Below, piece by piece: positions 20,645 to 40,496 of a stretch of 64,000 bases of DNA. The stretch lies in the NCBI RefSeq assembly GCF_041911615.1, contig NZ_JAYROR010000089.1:2131-66130 (forward strand). Reading direction: 5' to 3'. The stretch comes from Zoogloea sp. (GTDB lineage Bacteria > Pseudomonadota > Gammaproteobacteria > Burkholderiales > Rhodocyclaceae). A model generated the notes under the pieces. That model was not told the DNA's origin, did not search any database, and saw nothing but the letters and a program-made list of their open reading frames with translations. Numbering within the stretch: position 1 is the stretch's first letter; each line of letters opens with the position of its first letter. The translations under genes were made by a program, and so were the position numbers.

Positions 20645-22099
<1,455 letters not shown>

Positions 22100-22183
22100 A
22101 ATTAAAAATGCTCTCTGCGATAAAGGGGGGCTATCTGCGGCGAGAATCCCGTGGATTCAAGGTTTTGGCCCGGATTTCGATTC

Positions 22184-23203
22184 ATGAGTATAAAGCAAAA
22201 AGCACGCCCCGCCGGCTGGAGCCGGCATCCGGCGAGCCTGCCCGACTTCCGCAACCTCGGCGTGGTGCTGCGTATCCTGCTGCTGGTGAACGCGCTGGCG
22301 CTCGCCGCGCTGCTGGTGCGCAACAGCGCGCTCGCGGCATTGCCGGCGGAAGGCATGGAGATGGCGGTGCGCGTCGAGTTTCCCCTGATTCTCGGCGTCG
22401 CGGCCCTGTTCCTGCTGCAGCCGTTGCTGCGTCGGCTGCCCTACGTCGCCGGCGTGGCGGTGGTGCTCGGCGTGGTGCTGACGGTGGCGGCGGCGAGCCA
22501 GGTGTTGCTGGCACCCGTGGAGGTGGACGAGGCGCCGCGGGCGCTGATCTGGTCGTTGACGGTGGCGCTGGCGGTGCTGGCCTACTTCCACCAGCGTAAC
22601 GCGGCCCAGGCGCCGGCGCTGGCCGAGGCGCGGCTCTTGGCGCTGACTGCCCGCATCCGCCCGCATTTCCTGTTCAACAGCCTGAACGGCGTGCTCGGCG
22701 TGCTGCGCCGCGATCCGCGACGGGCCGAGGAGGGCCTGGAGGAGCTGGCCGACCTGTTCCGCGCCCTGATGCAGGATAATCGCGAGCTCGTTCCGCTGGC
22801 CGACGAGATCGTCCTGTGCGAACGCTACCTGAGCCTCGAGCGCCTGCGCCTGGGCGAGCGCCTGCAGGTGAGCTGGCAGCGCGACGGGGCGGCCGACGCG
22901 GCGCTGGTGCCGCCGCTGCTGCTCCAGCCGCTGGTCGAGAACGCCGTCTATCACGGCATCGAGCCGGCGGCGGTGCCGGGCACGGTTTCGATTACCATCG
23001 CCCGGCGCGGCCCGGAGGTGCTCATCGGCATCGCCAACCCGCGCCTCGACGCGGCGAGCCACCACACGGGCAACCGCATGGCCCTCGACAACATTCGTGA
23101 GCGACTGATGCTTTTCTACGACCTCGAAGCCACCCTCGACACCGAACAGGATGCGGACGCCTTCCGGGTGCGCATCCGCCTGCCCTTCAGGAGCGAACGA
23201 TGA
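22184..23203 (+). CDS. algZ: AlgZ/FimS-like LytS-type sensor
   Basis: Four TM segments, ARIRPHFLFNSLN, LQPLVENAVYHGIE, GNRMALDNIRERL; divergent from argH and coupled to a LytTR regulator. Confidence 0.85.
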   Translation: MSIKQKARPAGWSRHPASLPDFRNLGVVLRILLLVNALALAALLVRNSALAALPAEGMEMAVRVEFPLILGVAALFLLQPLLRRLPYVAGVAVVLGVVLTVAAASQVLLAPVEVDEAPRALIWSLTVALAVLAYFHQRNAAQAPALAEARLLALTARIRPHFLFNSLNGVLGVLRRDPRRAEEGLEELADLFRALMQDNRELVPLADEIVLCERYLSLERLRLGERLQVSWQRDGAADAALVPPLLLQPLVENAVYHGIEPAAVPGTVSITIARRGPEVLIGIANPRLDAASHHTGNRMALDNIRERLMLFYDLEATLDTEQDADAFRVRIRLPFRSER

Positions 23204-23982
23204 GCGGTGCCGTCGAACACGCCTTCGCGCCGCTGTCGGTGCTGATCGTCGACGACGAGGCGCCGGCTCGCGAGCGTATCGCCGATCTGCTCGGCGACAT
23301 CGCCGATACCCAGCCCACCCGGATCGCCGGCACGGCGGCCAACGGCGTCGAGGCGCTGGCGGTGCTCGAGCGCGAAGCGGTGGATCTGGTCCTCACCGAC
23401 ATCCAGATGCCGGCGATGGACGGCATCGAGCTGGCCCGTCACCTGGGGCGGCTCGAGCGGGCGCCGGCGGTGATCTTCACCACCGCCTACGACGAGTACG
23501 CGGTGCGCGCCTTCGAGCTGGCGGCGGTCGATTACCTGCTCAAGCCGGTGCGCGCCGCGCGGCTCGCCGAGGCCGTCGCCAAGGCGCGCCGCCTGCGACC
23601 GCCGGCCGACGAGATCCTGCGTCGGATGGCGCCGGCGACGCGCAGCCATTTCAGCATCAACGAGCGCGGGCGCATCCTGCTGGTGCCGGTGGCCGACGTG
23701 CGCTACCTGAAGGCCGAGCAGAAATACGTGGTGGCCCGCAGCGTGGCGCGGGAATATCTCCTCGACGAATCGCTGGTGCAACTGGAGGAGGAGTTCTCCG
23801 GGCGTTTTCTGCGCATCCACCGCAACTGCCTGATTGCCCGCGACGCCGTGAAGGGCGTGGCGCGCGCCACCACCGGCGTGGATGGCGAGGCGCATTGGGT
23901 GATCCTGCTCGAAGGCATTCCCGAGCAGTTGCCGGTGAGCCGGCGGCAGTGGCCGGCGGTCAAGGAGGCGCTCGGGGTGTGA
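23200..23982 (+). CDS. algR: AlgR-like LytTR response regulator
   Basis: LIVDDE, TDIQMP, FTTAY, DYLLKPV, YLKAEQKY, FLRIHRNCL, LPVSRRQ. Confidence 0.88.
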   Translation: MSGAVEHAFAPLSVLIVDDEAPARERIADLLGDIADTQPTRIAGTAANGVEALAVLEREAVDLVLTDIQMPAMDGIELARHLGRLERAPAVIFTTAYDEYAVRAFELAAVDYLLKPVRAARLAEAVAKARRLRPPADEILRRMAPATRSHFSINERGRILLVPVADVRYLKAEQKYVVARSVAREYLLDESLVQLEEEFSGRFLRIHRNCLIARDAVKGVARATTGVDGEAHWVILLEGIPEQLPVSRRQWPAVKEALGV

Positions 23983-24101
23983 AGTTCCCGGGTGCCGATG
24001 CCCCGCCGCCAACTTTGTCACGGCCGCGTCACGAACGGCGGCCGGTTTGTCTGTAATAAAATGTAAATTCTCCGCTCGCATATGACAGTGGGAGCGGTGG
24101 C

Positions 24102-25187
24102 GTGGGGCGGTCCTTTTCGATCTACCTCGATCTGATACGTTTTGCGGCAGCGTTTCTTGTCTATCTGTATCACTCGAATCAGCGTTTCCTGAGCACCTCC
24201 GAAGTCCCTTTCAGCGGATTCGGCCACAGTGCGGTGGTGGTGTTCTTCGTGCTGTCGGGCTTCGTCATCCGCCACGTCACCGACAGCAAGGAAGCGCACT
24301 GGGCGGACTACGTCGCCAGCCGCATCGCGCGCATCTTCTCGGTGACCGTGCCGGCGATCTTCCTGACCCTGCTGTTCGATACTGTCGGGCGCGCCTTCGC
24401 GCCCGAAATCTACGCCCACAGCGCTTCGGACCAGGTGCTGGCGCGCGTCGTGCTGAGCCTGCTGCTGCTCAACGAGGTGTGGCTGCTGTCGGTGATGAGC
24501 TTCTCGAACCTGCCGTTCTGGTCGATCTGCGTCGAGTTCTGGTACTACGCTGCCTTTGCGCTGGTGATCTTCCTGCCCCGACGGGTGGGCTGGGTCGCCG
24601 CCGCGCTGCTCGCCCTGGCGCTCGGGCCGAAGTTCATCCTGCTCGCGCCGATCTGGTGGGCGGGCGTGCTGCTCTACCGCTGGCGGATGCCGCCCTGGCT
24701 GGGCCGGCGCTCGGCGCTGGCGATGGTCGGGTTCAGCCTCACCGGCTTCTGGCTGTTCCACGCCCTCAAGATCGACCGCTGGGGTTGTCTGTGGCTCAAG
24801 GCTGCGCTCGGCCAGGACGTCGCCCAGTATCTCGGCTTTGCCAACTACGTGGTCGGCGACTACCTGCTGACGCTGCTGGTGTGCCTGAACTTCGCCGGGA
24901 TGCGGGCGCTGCTGGCCGGCTCGGGCGGCTGGTTGATCGCGCTGGAACGCCCGATACGGCAGGTGGCCGGCTGCACCTTCACGCTCTACCTGCTGCATCT
25001 GCCCTTGTTCCTGATGTGGAGCGCGATCGTGCGCGGCAACCCCGCGCAGCCGTGGTACTGGCTGACGGTGACCGCCCTGGTCTTTGCCAGCGTGGTGCTC
25101 GTCAGCCGCCAGACCGAGGCGCACCGCTACCGCCTGCGCGGGTGGCTGCTGGCCCTGTTCGCTCGGCGGGGCGTGATGGCGGCCTGA
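24102..25187 (+). CDS. Acyltransferase-3 (OafA-like membrane O-acyltransferase)
   Basis: [13 protein letters not shown]-x3-[37 protein letters not shown]. Confidence 0.88.
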
Positions 25188-25255
25188 CCCCGCTCGCGGG
25201 CGGGAACGTCCGCTTTCGCGGGTGTTCCAAGGAGGGCTCCCGTACAATCGCGCCC

Positions 25256-27427
<2,172 letters not shown>

Positions 27428-27640
27428 GCTCTCGTCGCGAACGCGACGTGCTGCACGTCGCGCCGGCGCGCTGCCGGGTATCATGCGGCGCCCATGTCAC
27501 GTGGGTTCCCGGCGCCCGCGGCCGTGTCGCACCGATCGCGGCGGCTGCGGCGGTTTGTAACAGTCCATCGTTAAGTTAAATGCTGTTACGCTGCCGTGGG
27601 GGCGCTGCCGTTTCAATGTCCCGTCATTCGTTGGTGAAAA

Positions 27641-28255
27641 GTGGAAAAGCTAGTCTATCGTTCGAGCCTCAGCGGGCGGATCGCCTCGCTGATCGATGTC
27701 GGTTTCGGCACCTTCCGGGGGTTCGTGCGGTTGGTCCTGGGGGAGCTGGCCTTCGTTGGTGGCGGCCTGCGGCCTTTCGTGCAGATTCGCCCCCGTGAGG
27801 TGAAGCGCCTGGTCTTCGTGTGCCTGGGCAACATCAACCGTAGTGCCTTCGGGCACGCCGTGGCCGACAAGCTCGGTGCCCAGGTGGCGTCCCTCGGCTT
27901 GTCCACCACCACCGGCGCGCCGGCCTTCGAGAAGGCGATCGCTGCGGCCCCGGTGTACGGCATCGATCTGGGCGCCCATCGCGCCACCGATTTCACGGAT
28001 TTCCGTTACCAGCCCGGCGACCTGCTGCTGGCGATGGAGGTCCGCCACGTGCACGAGCTGATCCGCCGCGGCATTCCGGCCGACGCGATCGCCCTGCTGG
28101 GACACTGGTCGCGTCCGCACCGCATCCACATCCACGACCCCCACCTGCACACCGACCAGTATTTCCGTACCTGCTTCGCCATCATCCACTCGGCAGTGGC
28201 CAATCTGGTCGAGGAACTGCGCCTGGGAGAAAGCCCGTGTCTGAGCAAAAAGTGA
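27641..28255 (+). CDS. Low-molecular-weight phosphotyrosine phosphatase-like protein (variant P-loop)
   Basis: FVCLGNINRSAF (CX5R), SLGL, HRA, LLAME, IHDPH. Confidence 0.78.
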   Translation: MEKLVYRSSLSGRIASLIDVGFGTFRGFVRLVLGELAFVGGGLRPFVQIRPREVKRLVFVCLGNINRSAFGHAVADKLGAQVASLGLSTTTGAPAFEKAIAAAPVYGIDLGAHRATDFTDFRYQPGDLLLAMEVRHVHELIRRGIPADAIALLGHWSRPHRIHIHDPHLHTDQYFRTCFAIIHSAVANLVEELRLGESPCLSKK

Positions 28256-29211
28256 ATGTCTACCTGACCTTCGACATCGAGGTCTGGTGCGGCGGCTGGA
28301 ACAACCTCGACGGCAACTTCCCGGGCAGCTTCGAGCGCTACGTCTATGGCCGCTCGCCGAAGGGCGACTACGCGCTGCCGAAGACCCTCGAAATCCTCGA
28401 CCGCAACGGCCTCAAAGGGGTGTTCTTCGTCGAGCCGCTGTTCGCGGCGCGCTTCGGCGTGGACAAGCTGGCGGTGATCGTCGACCTGATCCGCGCCGGC
28501 GGCCACGACGTGCAGCTGCATCTGCACCCCGAGTGGTCGGACGAGCTGACCCCGCTGCCGTTTCCCGGCGCCAGCCGCAAGCGCCAGCACCTGGCCTTCT
28601 ACACCCTCGAGGAGCAGACCATCCTGATCCGGATGGGCCTCGACCTGCTGGCCCAGGTGGGCTGCGCCCCGATCACGGCCTTCCGGGCCGGCAGCTTCGC
28701 GGCCAACGCCGATACCTTCCGCGCCCTGCGCGCCTGCGGACTGACGGTGGATTTCAGCCTCAACGAAGTGTGCGCCGACAGCGGTCCCGACCTGCGCGGC
28801 AAGGTCGACTTCCTGAATCCCCAGCGCATCGACGGCGTGCAGAGCGTGCCGATGACGATCTTCCGCGACGGCACCGGGCGCCTGCGTCCGGCGCAGCTGG
28901 GCGCCTGCAGCGTCGCCGAACTGTGTGGCGCGCTCGAATCGGCGCGCGGGCGCGGTGTCGAGCACTTCGTCATGCTGTCGCACAACTTCGAGATGCTCAA
29001 GCAGGGGCGCAGCGAGCCGGATGCCATCGTGGTGCGGCGGTTTGAAAAAATATGCAAATTTTTGGCGCGCCGGCGTGATGAATTTACTGTCGCCACCGCG
29101 GCTATGCTGCCAACATTCCACCCCGGTTCGCAGCCCCGCCTTCCGGTTGCCAGCCTGCCCGCAACGCTCTGGCGCCACGGGGAGCAGCTGGCTCGCCGCT
29201 TCCTCGGATGA
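28237..29211 (+). CDS. Polysaccharide deacetylase (NodB/CE4-like)
   Basis: YLTFDIE, KGVFFVE, VQLHLHPEW, FRAGSF. Confidence 0.8.
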   Translation: MSEQKVNVYLTFDIEVWCGGWNNLDGNFPGSFERYVYGRSPKGDYALPKTLEILDRNGLKGVFFVEPLFAARFGVDKLAVIVDLIRAGGHDVQLHLHPEWSDELTPLPFPGASRKRQHLAFYTLEEQTILIRMGLDLLAQVGCAPITAFRAGSFAANADTFRALRACGLTVDFSLNEVCADSGPDLRGKVDFLNPQRIDGVQSVPMTIFRDGTGRLRPAQLGACSVAELCGALESARGRGVEHFVMLSHNFEMLKQGRSEPDAIVVRRFEKICKFLARRRDEFTVATAAMLPTFHPGSQPRLPVASLPATLWRHGEQLARRFLG

Positions 29212-29345
29212 CGCTCCCGGCCCATGGTCGGGTGTTTTCCTGATCGTGTCGCCCGCGCACCGCTCTTGCTCCGACTTCCCGAGGCCTTCATGACGCGCAT
29301 CCCTTTCTTCCGACCGGTCTGCGCCCGCCTCGCCGGAGGACGGCC

Positions 29346-29768
29346 GTGAGCGACGGGGCCGACGTCCGGCCGCCGCCGCTGCTGCGGGATCGCCGCCGTG
29401 CCGCCGCGGTCCGTTATGCCATCACCGGCGTGGCGCTGCTGCTGCTCGACATGGCGGTGTTCTTCGTGCTGGCGCGCGGACTGCAGGTCGAGCCGGCCCT
29501 GGCGCAGTTCGCGGCCCGCGCGGCCGGTGCGGTGGCGGGCTTCTTCGGTCACAAGAATTTCTCCTTCCGCAACACCGGCGACGGGCCGGCGATGCCGCTG
29601 CGCCAGGTGCTGCTTTATGCCACCGTGACCGCGATCACCCTCTGCGTGTCGCCGCTGGTGCTGGTCGGGTTGCTGGCGTTGTCGGACAACCTCGTGGCCG
29701 CCAAGCTCGGCACCGAGGTGGTGATGGTGGCCTTCAATTATTTTTGCCTCAGTAGGGTGTTCCGATGA
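29346..29768 (+). CDS. GtrA family membrane protein
   Basis: About 140 aa, four TM; VRYAITG, FFGHKNFSF, AKLGTEV-x4-FNYF. Confidence 0.82.
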   Translation: MSDGADVRPPPLLRDRRRAAAVRYAITGVALLLLDMAVFFVLARGLQVEPALAQFAARAAGAVAGFFGHKNFSFRNTGDGPAMPLRQVLLYATVTAITLCVSPLVLVGLLALSDNLVAAKLGTEVVMVAFNYFCLSRVFR

Positions 29769-30775
29769 AACTGGATACGGACAGGGTTGAGGTGTCGGTC
29801 GTCGTGCCGGCCTTCAACGAAGCCGAGGGGCTGCCCCGCTTTCTCGAAGAGATCGACCGGGTGATCGCGTCCCTCGATGTGCGCGCCGAGCTGGTTTTCG
29901 TGAACGATGGCTCGCAGGACGGCACCGAAGCGGTGTTGCAAGACATCGCACGTTTCCGGCCCGACGTGGTGCCGGTCAATTTTGCGCGCAACTTCGGCAA
30001 GGAAGCCGCGATGGCCGCCGGGCTCGCGGTGGCGAGCGGCGAGTGCGTGGTGTTCATGGACGCCGATCTGCAGCATCCGCCGCAGATCCTCGGCGAACTG
30101 CTCGCCAAGTGGCGCGAGGGCTACGACGTGGTGAATGGCCGCAAGCGCCGCCGCGGACAAGAGCCGGCCGTGTATCGCGCCTTCGCCAACCTGTTCAACG
30201 GCCTCATGAGCCGCGCGGTGGGGGGCGACATGGCTGGCGCCAGCGACTTCAAGCTGCTCGACCGCCAGGTGGTGGACACCCTGCTGCAGTTCCCCGAGCG
30301 CAATCGTTTTTTCCGCGGCATGGTGACCTGGGTTGGCTTCCGGGTGGCGGACGTGGAGTTCGACGTGCAGGAGCGCGAGATCGGCGCCACCAAGTGGTCG
30401 CTCGGTTCGCTGATGCGCTACTCGCTCAACAACCTGCTGGCCTTCTCGTCGATGCCACTGGTTGCGGTGGCCTACGTGGGCTTCGCCACCGTCGGCCTCG
30501 GCAGCCTGCTGCTGCTGCAGACGTTGTACCGTTACTTCGCCGGCACCGCGGCGATCGGCTTCACCACCGTGATCGCCGTGCAGGTGATGCTCGGCGGCAT
30601 GATCCTGATGGCGCTGGGCGTCATCTCGATCTACATGGCGCGCATGTACGACGAGCAGAAGCAGCGCCCGATGTTCATCATCCGTCGCCCGCGTCCGCGC
30701 CAGGCGAGCCGCGGCGGCGTGGACCGCAGCCCGCTGACCATCGCCGGCGGGCGCGATTTCGGAGACGGCCAATGA
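29765..30775 (+). CDS. GT2 polyprenol-phosphate glycosyltransferase (GtrB/ArnC-like)
   Basis: SVVVPAFNE, FVNDGSQD, RNFGKEAAMAAG, DADLQHPP, SDFKLLDR, RFFRGM, two C-terminal TM, QKQRP. Confidence 0.92.
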   Translation: MKLDTDRVEVSVVVPAFNEAEGLPRFLEEIDRVIASLDVRAELVFVNDGSQDGTEAVLQDIARFRPDVVPVNFARNFGKEAAMAAGLAVASGECVVFMDADLQHPPQILGELLAKWREGYDVVNGRKRRRGQEPAVYRAFANLFNGLMSRAVGGDMAGASDFKLLDRQVVDTLLQFPERNRFFRGMVTWVGFRVADVEFDVQEREIGATKWSLGSLMRYSLNNLLAFSSMPLVAVAYVGFATVGLGSLLLLQTLYRYFAGTAAIGFTTVIAVQVMLGGMILMALGVISIYMARMYDEQKQRPMFIIRRPRPRQASRGGVDRSPLTIAGGRDFGDGQ

Positions 30776-32580
30776 TCGGGCTCACCCGCAGTGAATCGCC
30801 GCTGACGCTGGCGGAAGGCGTCAAGGCCTTCGGGGTATTCCTGGTGCTCGCGCTGGTGCTGCATTTCCCGCACTACGGTTCGCACTACGGCGACCCCAAC
30901 TTCGACTTCTACCTGCACTACCACTGGGCGAAGGAATACGCCGAGAGCGTCGCCCATGGCTGGTGGTATCCGCGCTGGACCTTCTTCGCCCGCTTCGGCC
31001 TGGGCGAGCCGGTGTTCGTGTTCTACTCGCCGCTCTACTACCTGCTGTCGGCGCTGCTGGCGCTGGGCGGAATGACCGTCTGGAACGCGATGCACGTGGT
31101 CGAGGTGCTGAGCAACGCGGTGTTCGGGCTGTTCGTCTATCTCACCTGCCGTCACTACGCGAGCAACCGGCTGGCCCTGGTGGCCGGCTTCGCGGCGTCG
31201 CTCAACCCCTTTCTGGTGATGCTGCATTACAAGTTCCAGGGCTTCGCCTGGGCGTCGGTGGGCTACGCGGCCCACGGGATGCTGCTGTGGGCGATGTTCC
31301 GACCCAAGGCCGACCCGGCGCGCATCAACCTGCTTGCCGCGGTGGCCCTCGGCATCGCAGTGGTCGGCCACACGATGAGCACCCTGGTGATGCTGGTCTG
31401 CTACTCGGCGGCGGTGTTCGTCGCGCCGGCGGGCGGCGGCGAAGTGCGGGTGGCGGGGCTGCCGCGGCGTCTCGTCGCCTGGGGCTGCACCGTGGCACTG
31501 GGCCTCGGCATGGGGGCGATCTACCTGTTGCCGGCACTCGGTTCCCAGTCGCTGATCAATACCGACGCCTGGACCGGCCCGCACATCCTGCAGGCCTTCG
31601 CCTGGCCGACCTTCTCGGCGGTGATCCACGGCGTGCAGTGGTTCTCCTTCCAGTGGCCGCTGGCGGTGCCGGTGCTGGCCTTGCTGGTGGTGCAGGCGTG
31701 GTTCCTGTTCAAGTTGAAGGGTGCCGACGGGCAGCCGATCCGGCCGTTGCTGATGCAGCTCTTCCTGGTGCTGGCGGTGGCGGTGTTCTTCGCCTCGGAG
31801 CTGTCGTACCCGCTGTGGACGATCCAGTCGCCGCTGCTGCGCATCCAGTTGCCTTATCGCTTCCTGTCGGTGGCCTATGTGATGGTGATCGTCATCGGTG
31901 TGCTGGCGGCCCAGGCGGCGCGGGCCCGAGGCCGTCGCGGCTGGGAGATCGGCCTGGTCCGCTCGGTGGCGGCGGTGGGCGTGCTGGGGCTGTTGATCGC
32001 CGCCAAGGCGACTTACCTGGACGGTGGCAAGCTGCTGCCGGCGATGGCCCGCGACCAGTATTCGTTCGAGCTGCTGCCCCAGTGGTCGCGCACGCCCGAC
32101 GGGGGCTTCGCCTGCGCTGTCGACCGCAATGCCTGCCTGCGTCTGCCGCTGAGTGCGGGGGCTTTCCGCGGTACGCCGGAATACGCCACCAAGCACGCCA
32201 CGCCGGCGTTCTTCGACTGGGCGATGGCGGGCTTCGCGAAGGAGTGCGCGCAGCGCGGCGCGGTGTGCGGTCCGGCCCGCTACGTGTCCAACACCGTCGG
32301 CTGGCACATCGAGGCGCGCGCGGCGACGCCGCTGCGTCTGCCGGTGTTCCTGTTCCCGATGTGGGCGGTCGAGGTGGATGGCAAGCCCGTCCCGGCGGTG
32401 CACGACCCCGAAACAGGCTTGATCCAGGTCGAACTCGCACCCGGCGCCCACGAGGTGCGGCTCGAATGGACGGAGACGCCGCTGTTCGCGATGGCACGCT
32501 GGGTCACAATCGTTTCCATCGGTGTGTTGATCGTGCTCGGGCTTGCTGGCAGAGTTCGACGTGGTGCCCATTTCGGGTAG
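30772..32580 (+). CDS. Polytopic membrane protein, GT-C-like (PTPS-related/YfhO-like N-terminus)
   Basis: Start MIGLTRSE overlaps the GT2 stop; HGWWYPRW...GLGEPVFVFYSPLYY, many TM segments, IQLPYRF, C-terminal periplasmic domain (LPVFLFPMW...PGAHEVRL). Confidence 0.75.
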   Translation: MIGLTRSESPLTLAEGVKAFGVFLVLALVLHFPHYGSHYGDPNFDFYLHYHWAKEYAESVAHGWWYPRWTFFARFGLGEPVFVFYSPLYYLLSALLALGGMTVWNAMHVVEVLSNAVFGLFVYLTCRHYASNRLALVAGFAASLNPFLVMLHYKFQGFAWASVGYAAHGMLLWAMFRPKADPARINLLAAVALGIAVVGHTMSTLVMLVCYSAAVFVAPAGGGEVRVAGLPRRLVAWGCTVALGLGMGAIYLLPALGSQSLINTDAWTGPHILQAFAWPTFSAVIHGVQWFSFQWPLAVPVLALLVVQAWFLFKLKGADGQPIRPLLMQLFLVLAVAVFFASELSYPLWTIQSPLLRIQLPYRFLSVAYVMVIVIGVLAAQAARARGRRGWEIGLVRSVAAVGVLGLLIAAKATYLDGGKLLPAMARDQYSFELLPQWSRTPDGGFACAVDRNACLRLPLSAGAFRGTPEYATKHATPAFFDWAMAGFAKECAQRGAVCGPARYVSNTVGWHIEARAATPLRLPVFLFPMWAVEVDGKPVPAVHDPETGLIQVELAPGAHEVRLEWTETPLFAMARWVTIVSIGVLIVLGLAGRVRRGAHFG

Positions 32581-32601
32581 ATGTTCGGTTGAAGAGTGTC
32601 C

Positions 32602-33813
32602 ATGACAGAAAAGTCAGTCCGTCCGCCGTGCTACGTGCTCGGCATCGAAACCCAGATCGGCCTGAGCCTGGTTCGCGAACTGGGCGAAGCGGGCGTCCCG
32701 GTGATCGGCATCGCCGCCCGGGACGACGCCATCGGGCTGCAGTCCCGTTACCTGACCCACGGCGAAGTGTTGCGCCACCCGCGCACCGACCAGGGCCTGG
32801 CCGAGCTGCGAGCCATCGGCGAAGGTCACGGTGCGGGTTATCTGCTGACCGTCTCGGAGGCCAATACCACCTGGCTCATCGATAACCGCGACCGCCTCGG
32901 GGTGCTGCAGCCGCTGCTGCCGTCGAAGGAGGCCTTCGAGGTGGTGCTCGACAAGGAGCGCACCCTCGAGGTGGCCGAGGCGGTGGGCATCGAGGTGCCG
33001 CAAAGCGCCAACCCGACCTCCTGGGACGAGGTCGAGGCGCTGGCCCGCAGCTTCCCTTTCCCGGCGGTATTGAAGTGGGCCGACCCCAACGGCGTGGCCC
33101 CGGCGCTGCACGCCAAAGGCATCGAGCTGGTCAAGGCCGAGTACGTCTATACCGCCGAGGAGTTCCTGCGCGTGGCCGGGCGCTATCGGCCGGTGGGCGT
33201 CTGGCCGCTGGTGCAGGCGTACTGCGCCGGGGTTGGCCTGGGTCAGTTCTTCTTCATGCACCGGGGCAAGGCGGTGCGGCGCTTCCAGCATCTGCGGGTG
33301 GCCGAGTGGCCGCCCGAGGGTGGGTTTTCGAGCGTCTGCGACGCGGTGCCGCTGGAGCGCTTCCGCGAATTGCAGGCGCTGTCGATCCGTCTGCTCCAGG
33401 CGATCGGCTGGGAGGGCGTGGCGATGGTCGAATACCGCTACGATCCGGCGAGTGGGCGGGCCGTGCTGATGGAAGTGAACGGCCGCTTCTGGGGAAGCTT
33501 CCCGCTGGCGATGTACTGCGGGGCGGGCTTCGGTCTGCTCGCCTACAGCCTGCAGGGGCAGGGCTTGATGCCCGAGCTGCCGCCGCTGCGCGAGAACCTG
33601 CGCTGCCGCATGGTGGCGACCGAGATCAAGCGCCTGAAGCGCATCCTGCTCGAGCCGGGGCAGATCCGCGACCGCAGTTTCCGCGTCCGGCCGGTGCGCG
33701 AGGTGTTGCGTTTCGCGGTGGATTTCCTGCGCCCGTCGGTGCGCTACTACGTCTGGAGCCTGCGCGACATCAAGCCCTTCTTCCGCGACGTGAAGAACGC
33801 GCTGGGCATCTGA
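32602..33813 (+). CDS. ATP-grasp carboxylate-amine ligase family protein
   Basis: LDKERTLEVAEAVGIEVP, FPAVLK, LVQAYCAG, GVAMVEYR, LMEVNGRFWGS. Confidence 0.85.
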   Translation: MTEKSVRPPCYVLGIETQIGLSLVRELGEAGVPVIGIAARDDAIGLQSRYLTHGEVLRHPRTDQGLAELRAIGEGHGAGYLLTVSEANTTWLIDNRDRLGVLQPLLPSKEAFEVVLDKERTLEVAEAVGIEVPQSANPTSWDEVEALARSFPFPAVLKWADPNGVAPALHAKGIELVKAEYVYTAEEFLRVAGRYRPVGVWPLVQAYCAGVGLGQFFFMHRGKAVRRFQHLRVAEWPPEGGFSSVCDAVPLERFRELQALSIRLLQAIGWEGVAMVEYRYDPASGRAVLMEVNGRFWGSFPLAMYCGAGFGLLAYSLQGQGLMPELPPLRENLRCRMVATEIKRLKRILLEPGQIRDRSFRVRPVREVLRFAVDFLRPSVRYYVWSLRDIKPFFRDVKNALGI

Positions 33814-33852: not shown

Positions 33853-33882
33853 CAGCCGGGCGCGCGCCCGGCTGTTTTCGTT
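33853..33882. terminator. Intrinsic terminator (probably bidirectional)
   Basis: CAGCCGGGC-GCGC-GCCCGGCTG followed by TTTTCGTTT, between convergent genes. Confidence 0.75.
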
Positions 33883-33913: not shown

Positions 33914-34462
33914 TCAGCGTCCGAAATGGGCCTTGACGCGCGCGACGCACTGGTCCTTGGCGTCGCCGGCGAGGGCGTCGCACTTTTCCTTTTCGGTGGC
34001 GTAGGCCGCGTCGTTCTTGGCCTCGGCGGCGTCATGCCAGGCTTCCTGGGTCTTCAGGCGGGCCTTGGCGTCTTCCTGGGCGTGCACGTAGGCTTCCTTG
34101 GCTTCCTTCTTGCACACGTCCTTGGCGTTGCCGGTCTTGTCGTCGCACATTTCCTTGGCGAGCTTGTAGTCCGCTTCGGCGATTTCCTTGCGGGCGTCGT
34201 AGGCCGCGGCTGCGGTGCCCTTGGCGCGGGCGTGGGCACTTTCGACCGTGCGGGTGCGCTCGGCCTTGGCCTTCAGCTTGCACACGTCGGCGCCGTTGCC
34301 GGAGAGCTTGGCGCATTCCTTCAGGGCGGCGTCGTAGGTCTGCTCGGCCTGCTGCTTGGTGGCGTCGTAGGGGGCGGTGCTGCTCGCCGCGAAGGCGGGA
34401 GCGGCCGTCAGGGCGGCGACGGCGAAGGCGGGCAGGATGCGGCGGGCGAAGTGGGAAATCAT
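33914..34462 (-). CDS. Secreted Ala/Lys-rich helical protein with three C-x10-C repeats
   Basis: Signal peptide ending PAFA; repeats CAKLSGNGADVC, CDDKTGNAKDVC, CDALAGDAKDQC; strong codon bias. Confidence 0.8.
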   Translation of the reverse strand: MISHFARRILPAFAVAALTAAPAFAASSTAPYDATKQQAEQTYDAALKECAKLSGNGADVCKLKAKAERTRTVESAHARAKGTAAAAYDARKEIAEADYKLAKEMCDDKTGNAKDVCKKEAKEAYVHAQEDAKARLKTQEAWHDAAEAKNDAAYATEKEKCDALAGDAKDQCVARVKAHFGR

Positions 34463-34706
34463 GGCGTTGCTCCTTGTCGTGTTGGCTGAGGTCGGTGGCG
34501 CGGTGTCGCGGCGGGGGGCCGGCGGCTGCGTCACTGGCTGTCAGATTACGGATCGGCGCGGGTCGCCACCGCCGGCGTGCGCCTACAGCCCCTGCCGGGG
34601 AAGGCCGAAAAGCGCGTAAGCCGATGCCTACGCGTGGTGGGCGGACGCCGGACGTGAAAACGGCCAGCCCAAGGGCCGGCCGTTGCGGAGCCGCGAAGCG
34701 CAGGCT

Positions 34707-37469
34707 TCAGCCGCTGTTGCGCAGGCCCGCGGCGACGCCGTTGATCGACAGCAGGATACCGCGCCGCACGCGCTCGTCCTGGTGACCGTCGCGGTAGCGG
34801 TGGAGGAGTTCGACCTGCACGTGGTTGAGCGGATCGAGGTACGGGAAGCGGTTGTGGATCGAGCGCTTGAGGAGCGGGTTGGCGTCGAGCAGCGCGCCCT
34901 GGCCGGAGATGGTGAGCAGGGCCTGCAGGGTGTCGGCGTGTTCCTGCTCGATGCGCGGGAAGATCGCCTCGCGCAGCGCGCCGTCCTTCACCAGATCGGC
35001 GTAGCGGCTGGCGATGGCGATGTCGCTCTTGGCGAGCACCATGTCCATGTTGGAGAGCAGGGTGGCGAAGAACGACCATTCCTTGTGCATCGCCTTGAGG
35101 CGCGCGAGGCCGGCGTCGCCGTGCTTCGCCAGGTAGGCCTGCACCGCGGAACCGAAGCCGTACCAGCCCGGCAGCATCAGCCGGCACTGGGCCCAGCTGA
35201 ACACCCACGGGATCGCCCGCAGGTCTTCGATGGCCGTCGACTTTTTGCGCGAGGCGGGGCGGCTGCCGATGTTGAGGGCGGCGATTTCGGAGATCACGGT
35301 GGATTCCCAGAAATAGCGCTCGAAGCCGTCGGTCTCGTAGACCAGGTTGCGGTAGGCCTTGAAGGCGCCGTCGGAGAGCTCGTCCATCGCCTCGAGGTAT
35401 TCGGGGCGCGGGGCCGGGTCGCGCGGGGCGAAGAGGGTGGCTTCGAGCGTGGCGGCGGCGAGCACCTCCAGGTTGCGGCGGCCGACTTCCGGGTTGGCGT
35501 ACTTGGAGGCAATCACCTCGCCCTGCTCGGTGAGGCGGATCTGGCCTTGCACGGCGCCGCCCGGCTGGGCCAGGATCGCCTGGTAGCTGGGGCCGCCGCC
35601 GCGGCCGACCGAGCCGCCGCGGCCGTGGAACAGGCGCAGGCGCACGTTGTGGCGGGCGAAGGTGTCCACGAGGCCGATCTCGGCCTTGTAGAGCTCCCAG
35701 CCGGAGGTGAGGAAGCCGCCGTCCTTGTTGCTGTCGGAGTAGCCGAGCATCACTTCCTGCTCCCGCTTGCGGGATTCCAGCAGCGCCATGTAGGCGGGGA
35801 TGGCGAACAGCCGGTCCATCACGCCAGCGGCGTTCTGCAGGTCGCCGATGGTCTCGAAGAGCGGGATGATGTTCACGTCGAGCACGCCTTCGGCCGGGCG
35901 CAGCAGGCCGGCTTCCTTGGCGAGCACGGCGACCTCCAGCAGGTCGGAGACGTCGTCGGTCTTGGAGATGATGCAGTTGGGCACCGCGGCCTTGCCGTAG
36001 CGCAGGTGGGCGGCGCGGGCGGCGCGGAAGATCGCCAGCTCGCCGCGGGTCTCGTCGGAGTAATCGAGCCACGGCGAGGCGAGCAGGCGCGGGCTGGCGA
36101 GCTCATCGAGCAGCATCTCGACGCGGCCGGCCTCGTCGAGCGCGAGGTAGTCGCGGGCGGGGTCGATGGACTTGATGAGTTCGGCCACCACGCGTTCATG
36201 CACGTCGGAGTTCTGGCGCAGGTCGATGGGCGCCAGATGGAAGCCGAACACCGACACCGCCCGGCGCAGCAGGCGCAGGCGGCCGCGGGCGAGGCTGCCC
36301 AGGCCGTTGGCGGTGAGGGAGCGGTGGATCACCTCCAACTCGTCGGCCAGCGCCTCGGGGCTGTCGTAGGGCGCGGCCGGGGCAACGGCGTGGCGCGGCG
36401 GCTGGTGGCCGAGCAGGCGCGCGTAGGTGGCGGCGAGGCGCGCATACACGCCGGTGAGCGCGCGCCGGTAGGGCTCGTCGGCGCGGTGCGGCGAGCCGTC
36501 CGGCGAGGCTTCGGCGAGGCGCAGCAGCGCGTCGGAGGCGCTCACCAGGCCCTGGGCGATGGACAGCTGCGAGCCCAGGGTGTGCACCTCGTCCATGTAG
36601 AAGGTGAGGACCTTCTCGGCCTGCACGGCGAGCGCCTTTTCGAGGATTTCGGCGGTGACGAAGGGGTTGCCGTCCCGGTCGCCGCCGATCCAGCTGCCCA
36701 CCTTCATGAAGTTGGGCAGCTCCAGCGCGCCCCAGCTACGGTCGTGGGCGGCGAGGCGGTCCTCGACGCCGGCGTAAAGACGCGGCAGCTCGCGCAGGAA
36801 GGTGTAGTCGAAGTACGACAGGCCGTTGGTGACTTCGTCCATCACCGACAGCTTCTCGGTGCGCAGCATCCGCGTCTGCCACAGGGTGAGCACGGCACGG
36901 CGCAGCGCTTCGTCGTTGGCGTCCTGCTCCTCGGGCGTGAGCTGCATGCGGTCGCGCTCGTCGAGCAGGCGGGCGATCGCCATCTGGCAGTTGAGGATGC
37001 TCTTGCGCTGCACTTCGGTCGGGTGGGCGGTGAGCACCGGCACCACGTTGGCGGTTTCGAAGAAGGCGGACAGCTCCGGCGCCGCCATGCCGGCGTCGAA
37101 GGCGCGCTGCAGGGCGTGGGCGAGGCTGCCCTCGCGCGGCGCGGAGCCGGCGATCTGGTGGGCGCGGGAGCGGCGGATGTGGTGCTGGTCCTCGGCGATG
37201 TTGGCCAGGTGCGAGAAGTAGCTGAAGGCCCGCACCACGTCGATGGTCTGGTCGCGGGAGAGGGAGTCCAGCGTGGCTTCGAGTTCGCGGCGGGCGGCGT
37301 GGTCTTCGTGGCGGCGGAAGCGGATCGAGCACTGGCGGATCGCCTCGACCAGATCGAACACGGCCTCGCCCTCCTGGGCGCGCACGGTGTCGCCGAGAAT
37401 GCGGCCGAGCAGGCGGATGTCGTCGCGCAGGGGGAGGTCTTTGTCGTCGCTCTTGTTGTGTTCGCTCAT
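34707..37469 (-). CDS. ppc: Phosphoenolpyruvate carboxylase
   Basis: [60 protein letters not shown]. Confidence 0.98.
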
Positions 37470-37659
37470 CGGAAATCCTGTCCAGTCGGTTGCGGTCGGC
37501 GCGGGAGGCGCAGCAGGGGGCCATGCTAGAATCCCGGCCCGGATGCCCGCCATAGGTGGCTACCCTGATGCTGCACTGCAGAAGCCGCAGATTGCCGCCC
37601 GAGCCCGCCGCTGTCCATCCTCGCGTCACCACCATCAACCCTTGCCGAGCCCGAATACC

Positions 37660-38589
37660 GTGAGCGCCCCTACGCCCGACCGCATCGTCATCGCCACCCG
37701 TGAAAGCCGCCTCGCCCTGTGGCAGGCCGAGCACGTCAAGGCCCGCCTCGAAGCCCTCTACCCGTCCTGCAAGGTCGAACTGCTGGGCATGACCACCCGC
37801 GGCGACCAGATCCTCGACCGGCCGCTGGCCAAGGTCGGCGGCAAGGGCCTGTTCGTCAAGGAACTCGAAACCGCGCTCCTCGACCGCGCCGCCGACATCG
37901 CCGTGCATTCGATGAAGGACGTGCCGATGACCCTCGCGCCCGAGTTCGCGCTGGTGGCCATCGCCGAGCGCGAGGTGCCGCTCGACGCCTTCGTCTCCAA
38001 CAAGTACGAGAGCCTCGACGACATGCCACCGGGCGCCGTGGTGGGCACCTCCAGCCTGCGCCGCGAATCCCAGATCCACGCCCAGTACCCGATGCTGGCC
38101 GTCACCAGCCTGCGCGGCAACCTCGACACCCGCCTGCGCAAGCTCGACGAAGGCCAGTACGACGCGATCATCCTCGCCGCCGCCGGCCTGACCCGCCTGG
38201 GCCTCGCCAGCCGCATCCGCGCCACGCTGTCGTCCGACGTGTCCCTGCCGGCCGCCGGCCAGGGTGCGCTGGGCATCGAGGCGCTGTCCGACCGGCCCGA
38301 AGTCGCTGCTTGGATCGCCCCGCTCGCCGACGCCAACTCCGCTGCCTGCGTCCGCGCCGAGCGCGCCACCTCCCGCGCCCTGGCCGGCAGCTGCGAAGTG
38401 CCGCTGGGCGCCTACGCCGAAGTGAAGGACGGCGAACTGTGGCTGCGCGGCTTCGTCGCCCTGCCCGACGGCTCGCGCATCGCCCGCGCCGAGCGCCGCG
38501 GCCCGATCGACCAGCCCGAAGCCCTCGGCCTCGCGCTGGCCGAAGACCTGCGCGCCGACGGCGCCGACGACATCCTCGCCGGCCTGTAA
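37660..38589 (+). CDS. hemC: Porphobilinogen deaminase
   Basis: [46 protein letters not shown] start. Confidence 0.98.
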
Positions 38590-38598
38590 GCCCGCGAC

Positions 38599-39390
38599 AT
38601 GGCCGGCCAGCCGCTCGCCGGGCGCAGCGTCGTCGTCACCCGTCCAGCCGGGCAGGCCGATGCGCTGTGCGCGGCGCTGGCCGCGCTGGGCGCCGAGCCG
38701 TTGCGCTTTCCGCTGCTCACCATCGCGCCCGTGGCCGATCCGGCGCCGCTGGTGGCGATGGCGCGTCGCCTCGCCGATTTCTCCCTCGCCTTCTTCGTCA
38801 GTCCCAACGCCGTCCAGTTCGCCCTCGACGCCATGCTGCCGGTGGCGCCGTGGCCCGCTTCGACGCGTGTCGCCACCGTCGGCAAGGGCAGTGAGGCGGC
38901 GTTGGCGGCACGCGGTTTCGCCGACGTGATCGCGCCCCAGTACGGCTTCGACAGCGAAGCGGTGCTCGCCCTGCCGGCCTTCCAGCCTGCCGCCGTGGCA
39001 GGCCGGCGCGTGCTGATCCTGCGTGGCGACGGTGGTCGCGACCTGCTCGGTGACACCCTGGTCCGTCGCGGCGCCACCGTCGAATACCTCACCTGCTACC
39101 ACCGTGGCGGCCCGGTGGACGACCCGGCGCCCCTCGTCGCCCGTGCCCGCCGCGGCCGCCTCGACGCCCTGACCCTCACCAGCAGCGAGGGCGTCGGTCA
39201 TCTGCTCGCCCTGCCAGGTGTCGAGGCGCTGCGCTCGGTGCCGGTGTTCGCGCCCCATCCGCGCATCGCCGCCGCCGCCCGCGACGCCGGATTCGCCACC
39301 GTCATCGCCACCGACGCCGCCGACCGGGGCCTGCTCGACGGCCTCGTCGCCCATTTTTCCGCGCCCAACCTCAAGGCCCATCCGGGTTAA
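38599..39390 (+). CDS. hemD: Uroporphyrinogen-III synthase
   Basis: VVTRP, FVSPNAV, VGKGS, DSEAVL, LRGDGGRD, TSSEG. Confidence 0.95.
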   Translation: MAGQPLAGRSVVVTRPAGQADALCAALAALGAEPLRFPLLTIAPVADPAPLVAMARRLADFSLAFFVSPNAVQFALDAMLPVAPWPASTRVATVGKGSEAALAARGFADVIAPQYGFDSEAVLALPAFQPAAVAGRRVLILRGDGGRDLLGDTLVRRGATVEYLTCYHRGGPVDDPAPLVARARRGRLDALTLTSSEGVGHLLALPGVEALRSVPVFAPHPRIAAAARDAGFATVIATDAADRGLLDGLVAHFSAPNLKAHPG

Positions 39391-39399
39391 ACTCCACCC

Positions 39400-40488
39400 A
39401 TGAGCAGCGAAAACCCCAGCCTCCCGCCCCCCGATTCCGCCCGGCCGGCGCCTGCGCCGTCGGCGTGGCGTCGTCCTTCCGCCTTCATCGCCGCCGCCGC
39501 GCTGGCCCTGCTCGGCTGGCAGTGGCTCGAAACCCGTGGCCGTGTCGCCGACATGCAGGAAGACCTGGCGCGCCGCCTCGCCGACAGCGACACCGTCGCC
39601 AAGGAAAGCCGCGCGCTGGCCAAGCAGGCCCAGGAAAACCTCCAGGACCTGCAAGGCAAGGTCGGCGCCCTCGAGGCCCGCTTCTCCGAATCCCAGGGGC
39701 AGCAGGTGGCCCTGGAGGCGATGTACCAGGAATTCTCCCGGTCCCGCGACGATCGCCTGCTCGCCGAGGTCGAACAGGCGATCGTCATCGCCGCCCAGCA
39801 GCTTCAACTGGCTGGCAACGTGCAGGCCGCGCTGTTCGCCCTGCAGACCGCCGAGGCGCGCCTCGGCAGCGTCGACCGGCCCCACTGGCTGCCGCTGCGC
39901 AAGGCCATCTCGGGCGACCTGGACGCCCTCAAGGCGTTGCCCCAGGTCGATGCGGCCAGCGTCGCGCTCAAGCTCGAGAGCCTGATCGGCCGCCTCGACA
40001 CCTTGCCCCTGGCCTTCGAGGCCAAGCCGCGCGCCGAGGCCACCAAGGCCGACGAGCCGCCGCCGTCCTGGGCCCGGCGCCTGTGGCTGGATTTCTGGAC
40101 CGAGTTCAGCCAGCTGGTGCGCGTCGAGCGCATGGATCGCCCCGATCCGGCGCTGCTCGCGCCGAGCAATGCGGTGTTCCTGCGCGAGAACCTCAAGCTG
40201 CGCCTCATGAACGCCCGTCTGGCCCTGCTCTCCCGTGACGGCAACACCTTCCGCGAAGACGTGCGCATCTCGGCCGACTGGCTGGCACGTTACTTCGACG
40301 TCAAGAACGCCGGTGTCGGCGCCGCCCGCGACGATCTCGCCGAGCTCCAGAAAACGCCGGTCGGCGTCGATCTGCCCAATCTCCAGGCCAGCCTCACCGC
40401 CCTGCACAGCCTGCAGTCGGTGCCCGAGCGGCGCATCGACGCGCCCGCGCCCGACAAGCCCGTCGCCGCCCCGGCGAAGAAGAACTGA
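39400..40488 (+). CDS. hemX: HemX family protein
   Basis: N-terminal TM, coiled coil, LAEVEQ-x5-QQL, FLRENLKLRL-x2-ARLALL; hemCDXY order. Confidence 0.9.
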   Translation: MSSENPSLPPPDSARPAPAPSAWRRPSAFIAAAALALLGWQWLETRGRVADMQEDLARRLADSDTVAKESRALAKQAQENLQDLQGKVGALEARFSESQGQQVALEAMYQEFSRSRDDRLLAEVEQAIVIAAQQLQLAGNVQAALFALQTAEARLGSVDRPHWLPLRKAISGDLDALKALPQVDAASVALKLESLIGRLDTLPLAFEAKPRAEATKADEPPPSWARRLWLDFWTEFSQLVRVERMDRPDPALLAPSNAVFLRENLKLRLMNARLALLSRDGNTFREDVRISADWLARYFDVKNAGVGAARDDLAELQKTPVGVDLPNLQASLTALHSLQSVPERRIDAPAPDKPVAAPAKKN

Positions 40489-40496
40489 GGCCGGCC

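Follow-up and report, generated by a model that had tools for sequence, protein, structure and literature searches.

Our analysis of a 64,000-nucleotide stretch of DNA from Zoogloea sp. (assembly GCF_041911615.1, contig NZ_JAYROR010000089.1, positions 2,131 to 66,130 of the forward strand), which we call the window, indicates that the six genes at 27641-33813 make up two modules rather than a single six-gene pathway. One is a conserved trio, consisting of a phosphatase related to the low-molecular-weight protein tyrosine phosphatases (LMW-PTPs), a divergent CE4-like amidohydrolase and an ATP-grasp carboxylate-amine ligase. The other is a variable slot, defined as the position directly upstream of the ATP-grasp gene, which in the window holds a cassette of three genes encoding a GtrA-family protein, a GT2 glycosyltransferase and a polytopic GT-C-like membrane protein. 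Moreover, across genera the trio is tied to loci of the XrtA/PEP-CTERM exopolysaccharide system, the source of the floc matrix in Zoogloea and its relatives, and with moderate confidence we think it probable that trio and slot together are a composite accessory tailoring module of that system. The first-pass annotation, made from the letters of the window, had taken all six genes for one stand-alone pathway decorating a surface glycan. Its idea of glycan decoration is supported by the gene types and by the tie to XrtA loci. The single pathway has to be given up: the six-gene block is co-conserved in one Zoogloea group only, and elsewhere the trio occurs without the cassette and the cassette without the trio.

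The evidence for a trio comes from a survey of one genome per species, which yielded 80 loci from Beta- and Gammaproteobacteria. In 74 of these the genes for the phosphatase, the CE4-like protein and the ATP-grasp ligase lie together, as they do in 69 of the 70 loci that have sufficient flank. They stay together through rearrangement, the order being CE4-like, phosphatase, ATP-grasp in Massilia and the phosphatase gene lying on the opposite strand in Cellvibrionales. The neighbourhood analysis that the first-pass annotation had asked for thus upholds co-location for three of its genes and confines the block of six to a single Zoogloea group. Could the six genes be unrelated and stand side by side by chance? 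Their flanks in Zoogloea are the housekeeping genes ygiQ and ppc, and the block is distant from the XrtA locus, both of which are what an accidental arrangement would look like. However, the genes overlap, they share one strong terminator, and their co-location recurs over dozens of genera in several gene orders; the co-location counts already contradict chance, which we regard as a negligible prospect.

The second module is defined by what the slot contains. Among the 80 loci it is an Acyl_transf_3 gene in 31, the CE4-like gene itself, making the trio contiguous, in 24, a GT-C gene in 7, all of them Zoogloea, and the phosphatase gene in 7 loci of the Massilia type. Every Zoogloea locus has the module placed between ygiQ on one side and ppc on the other, and the genus falls into two groups. 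The slot is occupied by GtrA-GT2-GT-C in one group, made up of the window, L009-L014, L071 and the metagenome contigs L091-L095, and by Acyl_transf_3 in the other (L015-L017). When the window is compared with L015 and L016 by blastn, homology ends at the stop codon of the CE4-like gene (29211) and restarts at 32623-32626, inside the start of the ATP-grasp gene, and therefore the intervening stretch of the window stands in place of a 1.26-kb acyltransferase gene. A further Acyl_transf_3 gene is retained upstream of ygiQ in the window, where it lies 2.4 kb upstream, and in L009, L010 and L093. With the slot acyltransferase of L015-L017 the encoded protein shares 56-58% identity, and with those of some 30 other genera about 50%; judged by these identities the gene is the slot-gene orthologue, displaced, and it is probably a further member of the system, lying outside the coordinates first annotated. 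We think that the cassette probably sets a strain-specific decoration of the floc matrix in this Zoogloea lineage.

How closely the cassette depends on the trio is a separate question, on which the linkage evidence is mixed. A metagenome scan with the GT-C alignment returned 33 loci, in 11 of which trio genes are adjacent, compared with the presence of the trio in only about 3% of the genomes of the order. These trio-adjacent proteins include members just 31-41% identical, in differing gene orders (L097, L099, L103, L105, L106, L108), and in L007, L025 and L033 a GT-C gene of the PTPS type (PF10131), a GtrA gene and a GT2 gene lie downstream of the ATP-grasp gene. Arguing against strict dependence, of 12 trio genomes with no GT-C gene beside the trio, 11 are devoid of this GT-C family genome-wide. 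Distant relatives in Competibacteraceae, Altererythrobacter and others keep GtrA and GT2 alone as neighbours. The loci of some relatives are without any XrtA marker. We read the cassette as an optional add-on working on the same polymer as the trio. The only one of the 12 genomes with a family member elsewhere is G601 (Rhodoferax sp. OV413), where the match falls in two pieces (positions 15-401 and 447-595) at C5:1443085-1444734; should C5 be the contig that carries the locus, the distance to the trio would be about 20 kb. No plasmid carriage of the ATP-grasp gene was found.

The link to the XrtA system rests on gene neighbourhood and on co-occurrence. In the majority of genera the trio forms part of an exosortase A (XrtA)/PEP-CTERM exopolysaccharide locus. 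As locus markers we counted the AsnB-type amidotransferase, the CapK-like ligase, the TIGR03097-like protein, the TIGR03006-type deacetylase and GT4 glycosyltransferases; at least two of them lie within 10 kb in 39 of the 80 loci, and XrtA itself is found within the flank in 11. For the phylogenetic profile we used 301 genomes of the order Burkholderiales, a preceding class-level sample having been too sparse (2 of 300). An ATP-grasp orthologue is present in 8 of these genomes and XrtA scores above cut-off in 92. All 8 ATP-grasp-positive genomes are XrtA-positive, a small sample of genomes that are not phylogenetically independent, and in 6 of them XrtA lies on the same contig, 18-56 kb from the ATP-grasp gene. 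The target polymer is most likely the XrtA exopolysaccharide.

The Zoogloea genome itself carries a single complete XrtA locus, on contig C66. It encodes an export protein, a chain-length determinant, a TIGR03018 tyrosine autokinase, an outer-membrane protein, an ATPase, a MOP flippase, a Wzy-like protein, a TIGR03006 deacetylase, a TIGR03019 FemAB-like protein (39533-40522), three glycosyltransferases of the system, a TIGR03108 amidotransferase, an AAC(3)-like acyltransferase, a CapK-like ligase, a TIGR03097-like protein and XrtA. Genes for the phosphatase, the CE4-like protein and the ATP-grasp ligase are all missing from the C66 locus. The earlier statement that the six-gene cluster is free of polymerase and export genes is correct, as wzx, wzy, wzc and ABC exporter genes are absent from it and just ygiQ and ppc flank it, and the proposal that the polymer is made elsewhere gains support because this exopolysaccharide machinery is encoded on C66. 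The possibility that the ATP-grasp ligase substitutes for the FemAB-like TIGR03019 protein was rejected: all 8 trio genomes carry TIGR03019 too, and the trio is therefore additional to the core pair of deacetylase and FemAB-like protein.

All three trio proteins are without a signal peptide, and the ligase requires ATP; thus the trio acts in the cytoplasm, on precursors, and an action on finished polymer, as in the original proposal, no longer fits. The ligase is the best conserved of the three: its alignment has 121 invariant columns, proteins from different genera are about 60% identical, and there are more than 1600 homologues, which their sources name 'carboxylate--amine ligase' or 'ATP-dependent carboligase'. 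It matches the Pfam families CPSase_L_D2, ATP-grasp_5 and ATPgrasp_Ter, and its predicted structure (pLDDT 91) resembles biotin carboxylase, PurK and carbamoyl-phosphate synthetase domains. PDB sequence searches with the ATP-grasp and CE4-like proteins gave nothing useful.

The phosphatase has an intact CX5R(S) P-loop (CLGNINRS) and a DP general-acid motif (HDPH), both kept across the family alignment, together with a conserved, family-specific N-terminal extension of about 45 residues. In classical LMW-PTPs aromatic residues follow the DP motif; in this family a His does. The intact motifs invite the explanation that the enzyme is a Wzb-type partner of the XrtA-associated tyrosine autokinase, acting on polymer length or export, and that the CE4-like and ATP-grasp proteins are separate tailoring enzymes outside any three-enzyme pathway. 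Pairs of an LMW-PTP and a bacterial tyrosine kinase are the established rule in Wzy-dependent exopolysaccharide systems, and the XrtA locus of this genome has a TIGR03018 autokinase with no phosphatase of its own, which counts further for such a partnership. However, the phosphatase gene never adjoins a kinase gene in the loci examined, and the TIGR03018 gene of this genome is on another contig; the phosphatase gene is instead translationally coupled to the CE4-like gene through a 19-nt overlap and, when gene order is rearranged, remains linked to both the CE4-like and the ATP-grasp gene. Moreover, the protein scores far under the Wzb equivalog of NCBIfam (42.6 bits against a cut-off of 243), has the N-terminal extension and the His just described, and is missing from more than 90% of XrtA-positive genomes. 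We regard a Wzb role of this kind as rather unlikely.

The CE4-like protein falls below the Pfam cut-off, and its assignment comes from conserved residues and a structural model. In an alignment of 29 members D13-x-E15, H95-x-H97, R150, H249 and E252 are invariant or nearly so, a pattern that is, on this alignment, that of a divergent NodB-fold metal amidohydrolase. The AlphaFold model (pLDDT 94) has as its top Foldseek match Salmonella ArnD (8t0j, E 2.7e-9, TM-score 0.51-0.60), followed by ordinary CE4 deacetylases. When the published primers for the floc deacetylase tmz1t_3249 of Thauera MZ1T were compared with the CE4-like family, the only matches were ones with 4 mismatches. As separate observations, in Thauera phenolivorans (L034:8376-9976) a second, partial copy of the CE4-like gene (210 residues, 53% identity) lies between the CE4-like and ATP-grasp genes, and in Chitinimonas taiwanensis DSM 18899 (L030:7942-8895) the CE4-like frame has one in-frame stop, reflecting either a pseudogene or a sequencing error.

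The resemblance to ArnD raises the question of whether all this is a lipid-carrier aminosugar pathway of the Arn or Lgm type. ArnD, LgmC and NaxD deacetylate a lipid-carrier sugar on the cytoplasmic face, and the relatives of the Arn pathway include LgmABC in Bordetella, FlmF2/NaxD/FlmK in Francisella and PpgS/Rv3632/Rv3779 in Mycobacterium. By this account the GT2 enzyme would make undecaprenyl-phosphate-linked N-acetylhexosamine, the CE4-like enzyme would deacetylate it on the cytoplasmic face, the ATP-grasp ligase would possibly re-acylate it, GtrA would flip it, and the GT-C protein would transfer it to lipid A, to the lipopolysaccharide core or to another envelope glycan. The operon does hold the four functions of the Arn pathway (ArnC, ArnD, ArnE/F, ArnT), namely a GT2 lipid-sugar synthase, a CE4-type amidohydrolase, a small membrane helper and a GT-C transferase; besides the structural match of the CE4-like protein to ArnD, the GT2 matches ArnC partially, and GT-C genes stand repeatedly beside trio genes, in several gene orders. 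However, the partners with which the CE4-like gene is co-conserved are the ATP-grasp and phosphatase genes and not GT2 and GT-C, and because a GT-C of this family is wholly absent from 11 of the 12 trio genomes in which none is adjacent, the case for the CE4-like enzyme acting on the product of the neighbouring GT2 is weakened. The slot is empty or occupied by an acyltransferase in 55 of the 80 loci. The GT-C protein is of PF10131 type, not ArnT/PMT, no ArnA- or ArnB-like genes are present, the genomic context is XrtA exopolysaccharide loci rather than lipid A, and the Foldseek E-values of ArnD and of ordinary CE4 enzymes are barely apart. An Arn- or Lgm-type pathway is, in our estimate, unlikely.

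What chemistry, then, could a module serving the XrtA polysaccharide perform? In the reading that we favour, the XrtA polysaccharide has a precursor, linked to a nucleotide or to undecaprenyl, that contains an amino sugar, and the CE4-like enzyme would strip this sugar of an N-acyl group. A new amide would then be made by the ATP-grasp ligase, most likely by placing an amino acid or other small acid on the freed amine or, alternatively, by placing an amine on a uronic-acid carboxylate, and the phosphatase may take off a phosphate that the ligated group or the intermediate carries, or else reset the XrtA-associated tyrosine autokinase. In strains with the cassette, the GT2 enzyme would load a sugar on undecaprenyl phosphate, GtrA would help flip the lipid-linked sugar, and the GT-C protein would transfer it in the periplasm as a side branch; in other strains the Acyl_transf_3 protein of the slot would instead add an acyl group to the polymer outside the cytoplasm.

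The logic of deacetylation followed by aminoacylation, already suggested in the first-pass annotation, has a published precedent in the Wbp/Vim pathway, in which a CE4 deacetylase acts before an amino acid is transferred onto the freed sugar amine; the authors of that work noted a homologous gene set in exosortase loci (PMC7468200). In Porphyromonas gingivalis and Tannerella forsythia this pathway comprises VimE (CE4), VimA (a FemAB-like Ser/Gly transferase) and WbpS (an amidotransferase). Its homologous set sits in the core XrtA locus of the present genome as the TIGR03006, TIGR03019 and TIGR03108 proteins, whereas the trio has an ATP-grasp ligase in the place of VimA, an ArnD-like branch of CE4 and an extra phosphatase. 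For a ligase followed by a phosphatase, the HS:2 capsule of Campylobacter jejuni offers a likeness: the C-terminal ATP-grasp domain of Cj1438, an amidoligase, couples a phosphorylated amine to a sugar acid of the polysaccharide being built, after which the phosphate is taken off by Cj1435, a phosphatase dedicated to this step (PMC11800379). This is an analogy only, as those enzymes are of the TupA-like ATP-grasp and HAD types, unlike the CPSase/biotin-carboxylase-like ligase and the LMW-PTP fold found here. The D-aspartate ligase Aslfm of peptidoglycan cross-bridge synthesis, listed among the ATP-grasp enzymes, likewise puts an amino acid on an amine of an envelope glycan precursor and is an ATP-dependent alternative to the tRNA-dependent Fem transferases (PMC3249071); its substrate class is the peptidoglycan precursor, and we liken the two by description, not by sequence. 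Furthermore, the polysaccharide of Vibrio (VPS) undergoes glycine tailoring of its lipid-linked repeat units (PMC13463779), and flocculation of Thauera requires de-N-acetylation of its exopolysaccharide (PMC4784049). A bolder proposal is that the trio makes a second amine-bearing sugar (an aminoacyl- or aminoalkyl-amide) on the XrtA precursor, which would be the acceptor for attachment of PEP-CTERM proteins by exosortase A, like the Wbp/Vim 'linking sugar' for cargo of the type IX secretion system; the enzyme of LMW-PTP fold would act on a glycan phosphate and not on phosphotyrosine, and the acyltransferase or GtrABC-like cassette of the slot would tune or mask the site in a strain-specific manner. 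We consider this very improbable and offer it as speculation.

In the cassette, the GtrA protein is by its family a putative helper or flippase for a lipid-linked sugar. The GT2 protein, whose translation ends in two hydrophobic stretches, scores under the NCBIfam equivalog cut-offs, with full-length but partial matches of 252 bits to PgfS and 148 bits to ArnC, and is putatively a polyprenyl-phosphate sugar synthase. The third protein has no Pfam or NCBIfam match of its own, and the 64 homologues detected are all unnamed; 8 of 23 aligned relatives match PF10131 (PTPS_related) weakly, a family of the GT-C clan CL0111 (PMC7801869). Its hydropathy profile indicates about 12 transmembrane helices. 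The first loop predicted to be periplasmic contains the invariant residues D45 and H49, and two invariant Cys lie in a periplasmic domain of 159 residues. A PDB profile search with the family found nothing, and the ArnT/PMT-family domains PF02366 and PF13231 are not matched in any of the 23 members, even at E up to 1. We call the protein GT-C-like because of the PF10131 matches of its relatives, the layout of its helices and the invariant periplasmic residues; its architecture is of the periplasmic type, and from this architecture it is putatively a glycosyltransferase that uses a lipid-linked sugar in the periplasm.

The match to PgfS suggests protein O-glycosylation like that of the Pgf system of Streptococcus mutans, in which case the GT2 would make the lipid-linked sugar, the GT-C protein would glycosylate exported proteins such as PEP-CTERM proteins, and the trio would be a mere neighbour. 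PgfS is indeed the best NCBIfam match of the GT2, GT-C enzymes include the protein glycosyltransferases PMT, TMTC and STT3 (PMC7801869), and the XrtA system exports many PEP-CTERM proteins (PMC1569441). However, the PgfS score is half of the equivalog cut-off, no target gene is adjacent, the cassette shares its slot with an acyltransferase of glycan-modifying type, and certain GT-C relatives stand in loci lacking XrtA markers. We judge protein glycosylation to be improbable.

Another likeness, in gene order and in the alternation at the slot, is to the GtrA/GtrB/GtrC triads of serotype-converting phages of Shigella and Salmonella, which glucosylate O-antigen: here too a GtrA gene, a gene for a GtrB-like GT2 with C-terminal hydrophobic helices and one for a putative polytopic transferase of GT-C type stand in a row. 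As in serotype conversion by Gtr triads or by Oac-type Acyl_transf_3 O-acetylases, a glycosylation triad and an acyltransferase alternate here at one site. Unlike the phage triads, the present cassette has no prophage context (no phage genes occur among the cluster flanks, which consist of ygiQ, ppc and trio genes), its transferase belongs to a divergent PF10131 branch that Pfam and NCBIfam do not recognise, and it is embedded in a cytoplasmic three-enzyme module tied to XrtA exopolysaccharide and not to O-antigen loci; relatives of the cassette likewise stand in exopolysaccharide loci. In two Competibacteraceae loci (L001:1051-4176 and L002:10245-13325) GtrA-GT2-GT-C stands near a conserved group of genes, which encode an acyl carrier protein, an AAC(3)-like N-acyltransferase and a 620-residue protein of no known family. 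A gene of the AAC(3)-like kind is also found in the XrtA locus of the present genome (C66:54236-55090), and the group may represent a further tailoring set that acylates amines. In metagenome contig L108 (2052-2471) the GT2 has only 139 residues and overlaps the start of the GT-C gene, and it is truncated or split because only the N-terminal half of the GT2 domain is covered.

Several results weigh against a tailoring module of the XrtA system. The trio occurs in only about 9% of XrtA-positive genomes, and in the Zoogloea genome the one XrtA locus is not linked to the six-gene cluster. The intergenic region upstream of the operon contains no PEP-CTERM box or sigma-54 site (the PrsR enhancer with its sigma-54 promoter); co-regulation of the operon with floc genes is unsupported because of this, and control by PrsR and sigma-54 was dropped as a candidate. 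The PEP-CTERM box belongs chiefly to the genes of PEP-CTERM proteins themselves. Among curated families, no Pfam or NCBIfam model names any member of the trio, and although the model confirms the ATP-grasp fold, the structural match is generic and does not indicate a substrate. Finally, the phosphatase could have no other role than to partner the tyrosine autokinase in the manner of Wzb, and the target could be lipopolysaccharide or proteins rather than exopolysaccharide.

Polysaccharides of the XrtA/PEP-CTERM type underlie floc formation in bacteria of activated sludge (Zoogloea, Thauera, Accumulibacter, Rhodoferax). Our analysis defines a conserved, uncurated three-enzyme module in about one tenth of the XrtA-positive genomes of the order Burkholderiales, and thereby three enzyme families whose substrates merit determination. 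It also describes a swappable slot that congeneric Zoogloea genomes fill differently, some with an acyltransferase and others with a GtrABC-like cassette whose GT-C protein belongs to an unrecognised branch. The slot offers a testable genetic basis for strain-level differences in the floc matrix, which could affect settling, recognition by phages and predators, and attachment of episymbionts. The kinds of enzyme and the principle of glycan tailoring were already known; as far as we have found, the fixed trio, its tie to XrtA and the swappable slot have not been described. We found no paper combining ATP-grasp, exosortase and deacetylase or describing the trio, and papers about floc formation in Acidovorax and Curvibacter are silent on these genes.

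As the first-pass annotation had it, the six genes are co-oriented, mostly overlapping and closed by a terminator; all of the reading frames were recovered where it had placed them. Their GC content at codon position 3 is 0.84-0.90, matching the coding signature of a genome with 68% G+C. The neighbouring frames overlap by 19 nt (phosphatase and CE4-like genes), 4 nt and 4 nt, with gaps of 134 nt between the CE4-like and GtrA genes and of 15-21 nt between the GT-C and ATP-grasp genes, the latter having an alternative GTG start at 32596. The terminator hairpin, with a folding energy of -31.2 kcal/mol and z of -3.85, ends both the operon and a convergent small gene. An internal terminator in the 134-nt gap, at 29216-29232, was discarded, as its hairpin is insignificant (z -1.7) and unconserved. 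Coordinates are collected in the table.

Table. Coordinates of the six genes, the exchanged segment and associated features in the window
Feature	Coordinates	Strand	Evidence or remark
LMW-PTP-like phosphatase	27641..28255	+	Pfam LMWPc E 1.1e-16; trio member 1
Divergent CE4 (NodB-fold) amidohydrolase, predicted	28237..29211	+	Polysacc_deac_1 E 0.007, below cut-off; trio member 2
GtrA-family small membrane protein	29346..29768	+	Pfam PF04138 E 1.4e-14, above cut-off
GtrB/ArnC/PgfS-like GT2	29765..30775	+	Pfam GT2 E 5.6e-29
602-aa polytopic GT-C-like membrane protein	30772..32580	+	divergent PF10131 branch (GT-C clan)
ATP-grasp carboxylate-amine ligase	32602..33813	+	CPSase_L_D2 E 5.2e-6; trio member 3
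Swapped cassette GtrA-GT2-GT-C	29212..32622	+	blastn boundaries against L015/L016
Acyl_transf_3 membrane acyltransferase	24102..25187	+	PF01757 E 7.5e-21; upstream of ygiQ
Intergenic region upstream of operon, 213 nt	27428..27640	+	promoter search region
Bidirectional intrinsic terminator	33853..33874	both	9-bp GC stem, T-runs on either strand

Conservation of the upstream intergenic region is patchy among the Zoogloea loci; no sigma-70-like promoter site was found in it, nor any TTTACA-type motif in the alignment of the corresponding Zoogloea regions. Upstream of the cluster lies ygiQ, which encodes a radical SAM protein (25253-27427), and downstream lies ppc (34707-37553, minus strand). The convergent small gene (33914-34534, minus strand) encodes a protein of 206 residues, rich in Lys, Ala and Glu, which has what looks like a signal peptide and contains three repeat units of the form Cys-x(n)-Cys. 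Neither Pfam nor NCBIfam gives a match for it, and among the 80 loci it recurs in L071 only, at 83% identity. Further out, the segments 20645-25187 and 37243-40488 of the window hold argH (minus strand), a LytS-type histidine kinase and a LytTR regulator (AlgZ/AlgR-like), and then hemC-hemD-hemX, a stretch split by about 13 kb made up of the acyltransferase gene, ygiQ, the six-gene unit, the small gene and ppc. We take this arrangement to resemble the argH-algZR-hemCDX neighbourhood of Pseudomonas.

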